Shown here: positions 34,309 to 37,251 of the stretch, piece by piece | How positions within the stretch are numbered: position 1 is the stretch's first letter | Layout of the letters: each line of letters opens with the position of its first letter | Notes under the pieces: generated by a model | What the model was told of the DNA's origin: nothing | Seen by the model: the letters and a program-made list of their open reading frames with translations, nothing else | The model's database searches: none | From: a virus | IMG/VR virus record: IMGVR_UViG_3300032050_010539 | Reading direction: 5' to 3' (one strand) | DNA length: 64,000 nt | Program-made: the position numbers and the translations under genes

Positions 34309-34879
34309 AAATCTTAAGCAATCTCTCTAGTGCCCTCTTCAAGTCTGATACTCTGCGGTAGTCATTAACTATGTCTATATAATGAACGCCCGCCCCATTA
34401 AGGCGAGCCAGACGGTCTTTAATAGCCTGATAGTTAACATCACTACTCAGTACCTGCTCAGACGAGCGGCTTATATTGATTACTATACAACATCTATTAA
34501 TCAATGTAGATAGCATACTCTCTATTACCTCTACCTCCTCCAGGTTGCGTAGGGACAATAGAACAGTAGGTATACCCTCGCTGATATGGTGCTGTATCTC
34601 AGTCCGCATCATACGACTAGAGAAGTAGGGGTCATTCTCTCTCATGAAGTGATAGAGATTAACCATGAACTGATTCATGGTTATATTCATACCATTGGGC
34701 GTATACTCTTTGTATACTGTTGTATCGAGGGCCCCCTCTGGCAATCCATAGTATTTCTCTGTGAAGCGCTTCCATGGAGCTATAGGATGAATCTCCTCTA
34801 CCCCCAGTAACTTAGATAAACATTTAGAGGCTTCAGTCTTACCTGAACCACTTAGACCATGAATAATAATAAAGAACAT
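34292..34879 (-). CDS. P-loop (deoxy)nucleoside monophosphate kinase-like protein
   Basis: N-terminal GLSGSGKT; A.P.K and LR..EE motifs of phage dNMP kinases. Confidence 0.65.
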   Translation of the reverse strand: MFFIIIHGLSGSGKTEASKCLSKLLGVEEIHPIAPWKRFTEKYYGLPEGALDTTVYKEYTPNGMNITMNQFMVNLYHFMRENDPYFSSRMMRTEIQHHISEGIPTVLLSLRNLEEVEVIESMLSTLINRCCIVINISRSSEQVLSSDVNYQAIKDRLARLNGAGVHYIDIVNDYRRVSDLKRALERLLKIYVNSR

Positions 34880-34896
34880 AAGTAGTCATGCAAGGA

Positions 34897-34925
34897 TTGA
34901 CAATTTTAGAAGTCTCTGATAAAAT
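34897..34925 (+). promoter_or_regulatory. sigma70-type promoter for the tRNA-like RNA
   Basis: TTGACA-N17-TAAAAT ending 6 nt before the RNA 5' end. Confidence 0.8.
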
Positions 34926-34931
34926 TGAAAT

Positions 34932-35131
34932 GCTAGAGTAGCTTGGTAGCTAAAGGCTGAAACGGAGCCTTCAACCGAAAAGGGACTTAATACAAAAAAT
35001 ACCTTTGTTTTTTGTTTCAAAACTGAAATTTGCGAATCCACCGAACTTGGCAAAGATTGAGTGAGGGAAGGGCGTTTCGTCAGGAGTAGATTTAATTAAG
35101 TTTTGCGGGTTCAATTCCCGTCTCTAGTACC
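34932..35131 (+). ncRNA. ~200-nt tRNA-like structured RNA with a ~130-nt insert in the variable-arm position
   Basis: Acceptor GCTAGAG/CTCTAGT+A, T-arm GCGGG-TTCAATT-CCCGT, D-like TAGCT-TGGT-AGCTA, hairpin AAGGCT/AGCCTT, long-range helix ACTTAAT/ATTAAGT. Confidence 0.65.
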
Positions 35132-35170
35132 TATTAAATTATGCCACCAGTCACGAGTTAATAAATTCAT

Positions 35171-35443
35171 TTAATACTCATTGAGTCGCATTTTTAGATT
35201 CTTCAGTTTTTCAAGTTTTCTTTCAGTTTGTTTAATTGCTTTAAGTCTCTTTTCTTCAAAGACTTTTTGAGCTTCTGTTTCCGTTAGCACATACTCTTTT
35301 GAGGTAAATCCGTCTAGCATTAACATATTAAATTTACGGGGATTATCCGGGGAAAATACCCCATGGCAGATTTTTCCATTGCACTTTATAATGCCACTTG
35401 TCAAAGCGTATTTTGTGACATAAACTGTAATTGTTTCGTCCAT
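35171..35443 (-). CDS. hypothetical phage protein, 90 aa
   Basis: VYVTKYALTSGI motif; AGGAG RBS. Confidence 0.65.
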   Translation of the reverse strand: MDETITVYVTKYALTSGIIKCNGKICHGVFSPDNPRKFNMLMLDGFTSKEYVLTETEAQKVFEEKRLKAIKQTERKLEKLKNLKMRLNEY

Positions 35444-35472
35444 TGATTTACTCCTATGGTTATTATTTTTAG

Positions 35473-35554
35473 TGGGTTAGGCTGGGTTTGCACCAGCGTG
35501 GAATTACTCTACAGATTTACAGTCTGTCGCCTTCGACTACTCGGCCACTAACCC
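35473..35554 (-). tRNA. trnY: tRNA-Tyr(GTA)
   Basis: GGGTTAG/CTAACCC acceptor, anticodon arm ACAGA-CTGTAAA-TCTGT, long variable arm, T-arm GCTGG-TGCAAAC-CCAGC (atypical T-loop). Confidence 0.88.
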
Positions 35555-36748: not shown

Positions 36749-36785
36749 GTTTCAATCCCTAATAAAGCTTAAACTTAATTGTTTC
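36749..36785 (-). CRISPR. solitary degenerate CRISPR repeat (type I-D-like)
   Basis: GAAACAATTAAGTTTAAGCTTTATTAGGGATTGAAAC, 37 nt ending in ATTGAAAC. Confidence 0.65.
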
Positions 36786-36799
36786 TTTTTCCTTAATAT

Positions 36800-37066
36800 T
36801 TAATCTTCTCCCCAATCTGGGTAGTATTGTAAATAGACAGCTTGTCGCTCGATAGCTTCCTTCTCAAGCTTTTCAATTTCTTCGTCATCGAAGTCGTGGT
36901 CCCAAATTAGAGAATCAAGAAACTGGTCTTCTTTCTCTATAAACAATTCCTTCTTAACCATAAAATCTTGGCAACCATAAGACATCCCTCCGCTTTTCCC
37001 TATAAAAATAAGCGCATTGTCTTCAACGGTCGCCAAAAACTCTTTTAATTGTTTTGCAGTAATCAC
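36800..37066 (-). CDS. small acidic protein, 88 aa, between CRISPR-like repeats (Acr candidate)
   Basis: AGGAG RBS with GTG start; D/E-rich. Confidence 0.6.
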   Translation of the reverse strand: MITAKQLKEFLATVEDNALIFIGKSGGMSYGCQDFMVKKELFIEKEDQFLDSLIWDHDFDDEEIEKLEKEAIERQAVYLQYYPDWGED

Positions 37067-37133
37067 TTTGTGTCTCCTAAATAAAAAGTTATCTTATCAA
37101 TATTCGGATTGGGAATCTACCATAATTCAATCA

Positions 37134-37251
37134 GTTTCAATCTCTAGTAGGGTTTAAAACTAATACACAATAACACCTACTATTAACCAATTACGTTGAG
37201 TATGATAATGGTGAATCTCAAACCCTACTAGGGATTGAGATTAATTCTAAC
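37134..37251 (-). CRISPR. mini-array: degenerate repeat (37215-37251) / 44-nt spacer / degenerate repeat (37134-37170)
   Basis: GTTAGAATTAATCTCAATCCCTAGTAGGGTTTGAGAT and TTGTGTATTAGTTTTAAACCCTACTAGAGATTGAAAC; CCCTA/TAG(G/A)G hairpin core. Confidence 0.62.

Follow-up and report, generated by a model that had tools for sequence, protein, structure and literature searches.

We identified a gene for a tRNA-shaped RNA of about 198 nucleotides in Microcystis phages, where it lies behind its own promoter in a mobile accessory cassette that is shared by two unrelated phage lineages. The RNA is strongly constrained across nearly all of its length and carries a ten-codon reading frame in which every variable site is silent. 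Judged from its sequence features, the best explanation may be a minimal, tmRNA-like RNA that is not charged with alanine, a reading that we favor only tentatively. A preliminary description had taken the RNA for an undescribed tRNA mimic, and it is indeed missing from Rfam, from the default output of ARAGORN, from the annotation of GenBank phage records and from the results of our literature searches. Features of the RNA, its variants and its genomic setting are described below.

Locus, promoter and RNA architecture

The DNA analyzed (the window, 64,000 nucleotides) is a piece of a 78-kb IMG/VR contig whose nearest phages are Ma-LMM01 and MaMV-DC, Microcystis phages of the genus Fukuivirus. 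The RNA gene is on the plus strand and is flanked by genes that are all on the minus strand. The Fukuivirus copy adjoins a tRNA-Tyr and a dNMP-kinase-like gene, and for the latter, which lies upstream, we found no connection to tRNA repair. The promoter is the best sigma-70-type site of the region and matches in type that of the neighboring tRNA-Tyr. Its -10 element stops 6 nucleotides upstream of G1 (34932), and transcription is predicted to start at 34932 or at most 2 nucleotides away. The elements of the locus are as follows.

34870–35134, plus strand: cassette of promoter and RNA gene (~245 bp), left edge between about 34870 and 34893; the sole stretch that aligns between carrier groups A and B (see below).
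34897–34925, plus strand: sigma-70-type promoter, TTGACA, 17 nucleotides and TAAAAT with a TG extension; 11/12 consensus positions, with the -35 element nearly invariant across variants.
34897–34902, plus strand: -35 element TTGACA.
34920–34925, plus strand: -10 element TAAAAT, with TG upstream.
34932–35129, plus strand: tRNA-shaped RNA of ~198 nucleotides from G1 to the discriminator A73, as supported by ARAGORN (introns allowed) and by folding; pi 0.018 without the hairpin loop.
34932–34938, plus strand: 5' strand of the acceptor stem, GCUAGAG, pairing with 35122–35128; G1.U72 present.
34940–34951, plus strand: short D-arm, AGCU, loop UGGU, AGCU (4-bp stem); C11 to U retains the pair.
34953–34971, plus strand: anticodon-position hairpin with loop GAAACGG (34959–34965); loop positions 2–6 invariant, first and last variable.
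34985–34991 with 35095–35101, plus strand: insert-closing helix ACUUAAU/AUUAAGU, present in the minimum-free-energy fold.
34992–35015, plus strand: A-run/U-run hairpin with a hypervariable 8-nucleotide loop (pi 0.26); supported by A-U/G.U switches and by the matched loss of one base from each strand.
35032–35064, plus strand: tag-like frame GCG AAU CCA CCG AAC UUG GCA AAG AUU GAG UGA (ANPPNLAKIE and stop); four variable sites, all silent.
35073–35078, plus strand: CGUUUC, potential long-range partner of loop nucleotides 34959–34964 (pseudoknot or P2-like helix); duplex -7.6 kcal/mol.
35105–35121, plus strand: T-arm, GCGGG, loop UUCAAUU, CCCGU; C188 to U retains the pair, and the T-loop has an A/G change at position 57.
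35122–35129, plus strand: 3' strand of the acceptor stem and A73; overlaps the 3' copy of the direct repeat AGUACCU.

The promoter, acceptor stem, D-arm, GAAACGG loop, closure of the insert, frame and T-arm all lie where the preliminary description had placed them. In the modeled fold, the ends of the RNA resemble the upper half of a tRNA (7-bp acceptor stem, T-arm and D-loop with GG), and a domain of ~110–130 nucleotides replaces the decoding part. The nucleotides directly after A73 are CC (35130–31), and CCA is thus only partly encoded. Pair 3:70 is U-A, so the G3.U70 pair is absent; the sole G.U pair, 1:72, is replaced by A-U in 4/32 distinct sequences. The D-arm can alternatively be drawn as a 3-bp stem with an 11-nucleotide loop. 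The GAAACGG loop has A at position 33 and thus no U33. In one circulating lineage (five contigs, including one genome rated 100% complete) the 3' acceptor strand is destroyed and the rest of the RNA is intact.

We also considered an acceptor stem extended by two pairs, in which the G.U would become the third pair, and rejected it: that G varies to A, an added pair is A.C in 6/32 distinct 300-nucleotide sequences (the window included), and C or U would have to serve as the discriminator.

Detection by RNA finders and database searches

At gathering scores no Rfam family matched the RNA, and the neighboring tRNA-Tyr alone was found. At E up to 10 the Rfam tmRNA model aligned to the T-arm and T-loop only, with 13 bits, and there was no other relevant match; the Rfam tRNA model (RF00005) likewise left the RNA unmatched. 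ARAGORN with default settings found the neighboring tRNA-Tyr and called neither a tRNA nor a tmRNA at the RNA, where its tmRNA mode also found nothing. When introns were allowed, it called 34932–35131 as tRNA-Pro(ggg) with a 105-nucleotide intron at position 34/35. The sole other such call in the 64-kb window was the true tRNA-Tyr, and five shuffles of the window yielded zero calls; this specificity argues that the tRNA likeness is not due to chance. Rfam and default ARAGORN, two of the checks that the preliminary description had proposed, miss the RNA, and ARAGORN calls it once introns are permitted. The RNA is unannotated in five GenBank isolate records (Ma-LMM01, MaMV-DC, -DH01, -CH01 and -DL01), and literature searches yielded no mention of it.

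A distant blastn search of 50,697 phage records gave matches in Fukuivirus only, with one copy per record, and on this count we rejected an origin of the insert as a MITE or other repeat. Pattern scans of viral contigs and metagenomes returned only copies of 91–100% identity, nhmmer over the collected loci found no diverged copy (every copy found is at least 91% identical), and a search for contigs encoding the RNA returned identical copies only. Neither the viral-contig pattern scans nor nhmmer revealed other insert types with the same RNA ends. When 185,579 species genomes were scanned with a frame-specific pattern, three phage-like MAG contigs and one chance site (L085) were recovered; four matches to our first search pattern lie in coding DNA and are also chance. 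Mimicry of CRISPR repeats was considered and dropped, the common GAAAC/GUUUC motifs being too short to have meaning.

A mobile cassette in two phage lineages

Carrier loci are split into two groups by their flanks. Group A is Fukuivirus, with genomes of 162–182 kb. The genomes of group B are 83–90 kb (rated 91–100% complete), and in these the RNA gene directly follows the gene for a 965-aa primase/helicase that has no homologue in Fukuivirus and only remote matches elsewhere. Alignment between the groups is limited to ~240–265 bp (window positions 34870/34893–35134), at 91–97% identity. The cassette is present in about 20 group-B contigs, and 18 others carry the exact empty site. Among Fukuivirus, two contigs are without it, L058 (a clean deletion) and L054, and exact empty sites are thus known in both phage backgrounds. 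The empty group-B site reads ...ATAAATA followed by CCTAATGATC..., and at the occupied site a 7-bp direct repeat, AGTACCT, is found at both ends of the cassette, its 3' copy being the RNA's own 3' end.

With its own promoter, its presence or absence at the same site and its occurrence in unrelated genomes, the unit of promoter and RNA is a mobile accessory (moron-like) cassette. The Ma-LMM01-type copy includes the first ~60 nucleotides or so of the gene that follows the cassette in group B, which suggests transfer from group B to Fukuivirus. We found no SmpB gene in the eight phage genomes searched (three Fukuivirus and five group-B), so that any tmRNA-like function would need the SmpB protein of the host.

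Sequence constraint

We aligned 32 distinct 300-nucleotide sequences, extending from 60 nucleotides upstream through 40 nucleotides downstream of the RNA, and measured diversity as pi. Without the hairpin loop the RNA has a pi of 0.018, compared with 0.108 for the spacer of its own promoter (the non-hexamer positions) and 0.26 for the 8-nucleotide hairpin loop. The body of the RNA is thus ~6 times less diverse than the spacer, and the loop is 15 times more diverse than the body. RNA, spacer and loop have been transferred together, so the conservation of the RNA body cannot be put down to recent spread alone. Across Fukuivirus loci, the RNA is 97–99.5% identical to the window, versus 91–94% for third positions of codons in the gene next to it. 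Nearly the entire RNA is invariant; the frame is not unique in this respect, and conservation of the insert equals that of the tRNA-like ends.

Covariation and competing folds

The 52 proposed base pairs show standard pairing in 99.3% of alignment cells, and changes within stems mostly preserve pairing (G1.U to A-U, C11 to U, A23 to G, C188 to U and C193 to U). In the acceptor stem, the variants include both the change at G1.U and a series from A6-U through G.U to G-C. Two pairs have undergone double changes: A6:U192 has become G:C in the L066 group, and G28:C147 has become A:U in L070; for the latter pair, L048 and L069 show A.C as an intermediate state. In L056, four changes that occur together are ambiguous. 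The covariation that the preliminary description had looked to thus consists of two compensatory pairs, with shuffle controls exceeded weakly; the closing helix ACUUAAU/AUUAAGU is invariant on both strands and hence uninformative either way. Among the hairpins that had been proposed within the insert, the A-run/U-run hairpin is supported by its matched deletion and pair switches, whereas UUUCA/UGAAA and UUUGC/GCAAA lack comparative support.

The pair G28:C147 is part of a 6–7-bp helix that could form between loop nucleotides GAAACG (34959–64) and CGUUUC (35073–78). In RNA numbering it joins 28–33 to 142–147, or 27–33 to 142–148 at its longer extent, and it is the 'anticodon stem' of the ARAGORN call. 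Two folds compete for these nucleotides. In the first, a nested fold of -53.4 kcal/mol, the RNA forms a cloverleaf with the insert at the position of the variable arm, and the loop could engage in a pseudoknot. In the second, of -48.1 kcal/mol, a P2-like long-range helix forms and the insert falls at the position of the anticodon loop. The nested fold gives the local anticodon-position hairpin an advantage of 5 kcal/mol, and diversity among the variants is too low to discriminate between the two. The giant variable arm of the preliminary description fits the first fold, with the second as its competitor. By analogy, the second fold suggests the topology of tmRNA, with the insert where tmRNA has its mRNA-like domain; helix 2a of tmRNA is the equivalent of the anticodon stem (PMC1168896).

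The ten-codon reading frame

Four sites of the frame vary among the 32 distinct sequences: 35034 G>U (GCG to GCU), 35043 G>A (CCG to CCA), 35049 G>A (UUG to UUA) and 35063 G>A (the stop, UGA to UAA). Peptide and stop are retained at all four, with both phage backgrounds sampled, and every real copy retains the peptide ANPPNLAKIE. Variation is seen at 3 of the 10 third codon positions, compared with 0 of the 20 first and second positions. The contigs were found via patterns outside the frame and thus were not selected for it. In a permutation test that covered every stop-terminated window of 11 codons in the three frames, the family-wise p is 0.005 under a uniform null and 0.009 when substitution types are kept; under the strictest null, in which four G substitutions inside the frame are given, p is 0.04. 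As a coding signal, variation at four sites that are all G substitutions is suggestive, not conclusive. A minus-strand ORF at 34971–35114, which shares third positions with the frame, was rejected, having lost its start and acquired a frameshift and several replacements.

In the same frame just upstream of GCG there are non-silent changes (C87U and U93C), and indels of the Ma-LMM01 type shift the frame there. The frame has no conserved start codon, and the sole upstream UUG is lost in most variants. The upstream changes and the lack of a conserved start codon make ordinary initiation unlikely. If it is read, the frame would thus start without an ordinary initiation site, like the frames of tmRNAs. 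Its first codons, GCG (Ala) and AAU (Asn), fit the resume codon of tmRNA, which usually specifies alanine (PMC1168896). The peptide ends in KIE (...AKIE) and has no hydrophobic ...LAA degron. The silent-only variation of this frame and the predicted helix between 34959–64 and 35073–78, with its one compensatory change, are the features that appear to be new here.

A possible mechanism

If the RNA works as a minimal tmRNA-like molecule, the host would transcribe it as a stable RNA of ~198 nucleotides, and host enzymes would trim the 3' end and add CCA. It would then be charged by a host aminoacyl-tRNA synthetase that does not need a normal anticodon, and probably not by AlaRS, since there is no G3.U70. 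LeuRS is a candidate on the grounds of A73 and class-II-like features, as is ValRS, for which the invariant A35-C36-like bases of the loop and A73 would speak. The charged RNA would enter stalled ribosomes, which would resume at GCG (35032), append ANPPNLAKIE and be released at UGA or UAA. Given a tag without a hydrophobic ...LAA end, such rescue would not condemn the tagged protein. Ribosomes would be freed with their products spared, which could benefit a phage whose host has many defences that cut mRNA and tRNA. The fully specified form of this proposal is a non-alanine trans-translation RNA, a mobile tRNA-mRNA hybrid that is charged by LeuRS, ValRS or another synthetase and appends a non-degradative peptide at stalled or defence-damaged ribosomes; stated with all of these particulars, we consider it doubtful.

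Several features stand against a tmRNA-like reading. The G3.U70 pair is missing, and position 1 is either G or A. The RNA may form a D-stem and, locally, an anticodon-like hairpin, and there is a hairpin only where a PK1-type pseudoknot would be expected. The family models fail, the tag ends in KIE, one lineage has a broken acceptor stem, and no SmpB gene was found in the eight phage genomes searched. Moreover, the coding signal consists of four G-substitution sites in an RNA that is invariant almost throughout. The minimal tmRNA analogue that the preliminary description had offered as one option has therefore gained a frame with silent-only variation and a long-range helix of suitable topology, and has against it the absence of G3.U70 and of matches to family models. 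The reservation expressed there that the RNA is short for a tmRNA can be dropped, as 198 nucleotides are acceptable in view of the 202-bp tmRNA sequence of Carsonella (PMC4131195).

Alternative explanations

The main rival, and a real possibility, is the decoy idea of the preliminary description, in which the RNA is an untranslated tRNA mimic whose top half and invariant anticodon-position loop titrate a host factor, with the frame as a by-product. Candidate targets include an anticodon nuclease or other tRNA-targeting toxin, a synthetase, SmpB and EF-Tu. The tRNA-like core is real, as judged by ARAGORN with introns allowed and by the shuffles, and loop positions 2–6 are invariant while 1 and 7 vary, as would be seen in an anticodon loop recognized by a protein. 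Constraint that covers the whole RNA beyond the frame also agrees with a mimic, as does the lineage that has a broken acceptor stem and keeps the remaining RNA intact. In addition, the gene resembles counter-defence genes in its accessory and mobile nature (about half of the group-B genomes have it, and it is missing from two Fukuivirus contigs), and there is a precedent in the TLD-only tmRNA of mycobacteriophage DS6A, for which titration of SmpB, and thereby interference with trans-translation in the host, has been proposed (PMC4131195). Silent-only variation of the frame (0/20 vs 3/10) is left unexplained by a mimic, however, and GAAACGG, with A at 33, is unlike any natural anticodon loop. 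The loop may also pair with 35073–78, as one compensatory change suggests, and would then be hidden from a protein. The same codon-phased variation is unexpected if the insert is an antisense RNA, aptamer or regulator carried on a tRNA scaffold, with the ends providing processing and stability (RNase P/Z, CCA addition and nuclease resistance). Conservation of the insert equal to that of the ends would be consistent with such a payload, and the small RNAs of the T4 tRNA region offer a parallel (PMC3014915), but our analysis identified no target, and a single insert type was found with these ends. We regard this explanation as improbable.

Mobility itself could be taken to indicate a selfish or decaying element, namely an insertion-disrupted tRNA gene that spreads by recombination and looks conserved as a result of recent spread. 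Polymorphism for presence and absence, the 7-bp direct repeat, transfer between unrelated phages and the existence of deleted and damaged copies are all in keeping with this. The higher diversity of the spacer (6 times) and of the hairpin loop (15 times) relative to the RNA body nevertheless excludes recency alone, changes in stems mostly preserve pairing and include two compensatory pairs, and the insert is not a repeat, with one copy per phage record; we consider this origin very improbable. The same constraint and compensatory pairs oppose the case that the preliminary description had named as its refutation, a tRNA pseudogene with a random insertion and no covariation. Hardly credible, in our view, is a tRNA-Pro(GGG) from which a 105-nucleotide intron is spliced to yield a decoding tRNA, as the ARAGORN label with introns allowed would have it. 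The spliced loop, CGGGGCG, would have neither U33 nor a purine at 37, and G34 changes to A or U in variants, altering the predicted 'anticodon'. Among bacteria, no tRNA introns other than group I introns are known, and 105 nucleotides are far below the size of a group I intron. No Rfam intron family matched at E up to 10, in agreement with the preliminary description, which had seen no group I core.

Implications

If the RNA is charged and translated, it would represent a second and much simpler form of ribosome rescue by a tRNA-mRNA hybrid, and the first tmRNA analogue outside the SsrA family. Phages would then be trading this form of rescue as a 245-bp cassette with a tag unlike a degradation signal, and would control ribosome rescue with their own proteins spared from proteolysis. 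Such a system would bear on how the frame is chosen in trans-translation and on how phages cope with hosts, like Microcystis, in which RNA-cutting defences are numerous. Without translation, the RNA would still be a clean case of a tRNA mimic, mobile and strongly constrained, in phages of a cyanobacterium that forms blooms and produces toxins. Isolates exist in culture (Ma-LMM01 and the MaMV series), and comparison is possible between natural genomes that have the cassette and those that lack it.

Comparison with known systems

The interruption near the anticodon and the cyanobacterial setting recall the cyanobacterial tRNA genes with group I introns (tRNA-Leu UAA and tRNA-fMet). However, the insert comprises 105–130 nucleotides as against about 200 or more for a group I core, it has no such core and no Rfam match, and its removal yields no working anticodon loop. 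Class II tRNAs (Leu, Ser, Tyr and Sec) share with the ARAGORN fold a 3-bp D-stem, an 11-nucleotide D-loop with GG, a long extra arm and A73, and the nested fold puts the insert exactly at the position of their variable arm. In contrast to class II tRNAs, the RNA has no usable anticodon loop, carries 110–130 extra nucleotides rather than 13–21, and is unmatched by the Rfam tRNA model.

Among phage RNAs, RNAC and RNAD of T4 are stable and tRNA-like in nature. T4 encodes these small RNAs, whose function is unknown, in its tRNA region (PMC3014915), and the Fukuivirus copy, next to tRNA-Tyr, is similarly a small phage RNA beside tRNA genes. Neither T4 RNA is known to have a conserved frame or to belong to a mobile cassette. 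Phage-encoded tmRNAs are known from the mycobacteriophage Bxz1 group and Bacillus phage G, as is the TLD-only form (PMC4131195). Like the TLD-only tmRNA of DS6A, our RNA is phage-encoded, tRNA-like and non-decoding, but it lacks G3.U70 and has a conserved insert of 110–130 nucleotides with a frame.

Every tmRNA known to us belongs to one family and accepts alanine. The RNA described here differs from tmRNA (SsrA, RF00023) in lacking the G3.U70 identity element for alanine and the pseudoknots PK1–PK4, with a hairpin of hypervariable loop at the position of PK1. The RNA could also fold a D-stem and a local hairpin resembling an anticodon arm, whereas tmRNA has neither. There are ~25 nucleotides between the long-range helix and the T-arm, and the tag ends in KIE, whereas tmRNA tags end in a hydrophobic degron. 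With alanine identity, family models, pseudoknots and degron all failing, we do not file the RNA as SsrA. It shares with tmRNA the acceptor stem, the T-arm with a canonical T-loop and A73, and a putative long-range helix could replace the anticodon stem. Further likenesses are an internal frame without a start codon that begins with Ala and Asn, a stop just before the 3' strand of this putative helix, and a hairpin upstream of the frame, where tmRNA has PK1. In size it is close to the smallest tmRNAs, and like some tmRNAs it is borne by phages (PMC4131195, PMC1168896). Among known systems, the way in which the RNA is proposed to work would by analogy most resemble that of tmRNA.

Rearrangements within the RNA gene

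The 5' part of the gene for the tRNA-shaped RNA seems to be a recombination point. We identified an inserted block of 1.27 kb in one Fukuivirus lineage, located between the gene for a dNMP-kinase-like protein and the cassette, the mobile unit of promoter and RNA gene. The far end of this block carries a diverged duplicate (approximately 89% identical) of the cassette promoter and the first 37 nucleotides of the RNA, in which the promoter has no -35 element, and the partial duplicate is followed by a terminator-like hairpin. The block also holds four small ORFs, none of which belongs to a known family. The 3' end of the RNA is altered in one lineage of group B, the 83-90-kb phages unrelated to Fukuivirus that carry the cassette immediately after a primase/helicase gene. 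Here GGGGAC takes the place of CTAGTACC, a change that destroys the acceptor stem as well as AGTACCT, the direct repeat bounding the cassette, while the remaining RNA and its 10-codon reading frame are intact. This lineage includes an 88-kb genome rated 100% complete. The locations of these two features are as follows.

L038:3410-4660, also in L008, L012, L021 and L071: 1.27-kb inserted block
L044:9020-9040, also in L011, L013, L031 and L033: altered 3' end of the RNA

The hypervariable loop of the A-run/U-run hairpin (window 35000-35007) occurs in two main versions, TACCTTTG and TAAAGTTA, the latter being approximately the reverse complement of the former. Such a relation would be expected if a quasi-palindrome had been flipped by template switching.

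Sequences exchanged besides the cassette or adjacent to it

Besides the cassette, group-B phages and MaMV-type Fukuiviruses have one more stretch in common, with 79-81% identity, which is a second exchanged module. The features considered here are listed below, with window coordinates where no locus is named.

L028:3789-4646 and L023:5104-5960: common stretch of approximately 850 bp, located over small genes arranged in tandem (PHROG family 23556)
35171-35443, minus strand: 90-aa ORF (PHROG 22725), between the cassette and tRNA-Tyr
35472-35554, minus strand: tRNA-Tyr(GUA) gene, a true class-II tRNA
35595-35567, minus strand: promoter of tRNA-Tyr, TTGACA-17-TAAGAT with a TG extension
36749-37251, minus strand: CRISPR-repeat-like units ending in ATTGAAAC, between small ORFs

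The tRNA-Tyr gene, which has its own promoter, is convergent with the gene for the tRNA-shaped RNA. Among five isolate records it is annotated only in Ma-LMM01 and is absent from the annotation of MaMV-DC, -DH01, -CH01, and -DL01. Ma-LMM01 lacks the 90-aa ORF and carries group-B-derived sequence there instead.

The cassette was also found in group-B context on contigs binned to unrelated bacteria, namely L082 and L084 (Crocinitomicaceae MAG) and L083 (Acidimicrobium MAG), all three of which are most likely mis-binned phage DNA. As for the CRISPR-repeat-like units, the sequence they have in common with the tRNA-shaped RNA is confined to the motif GAAAC.
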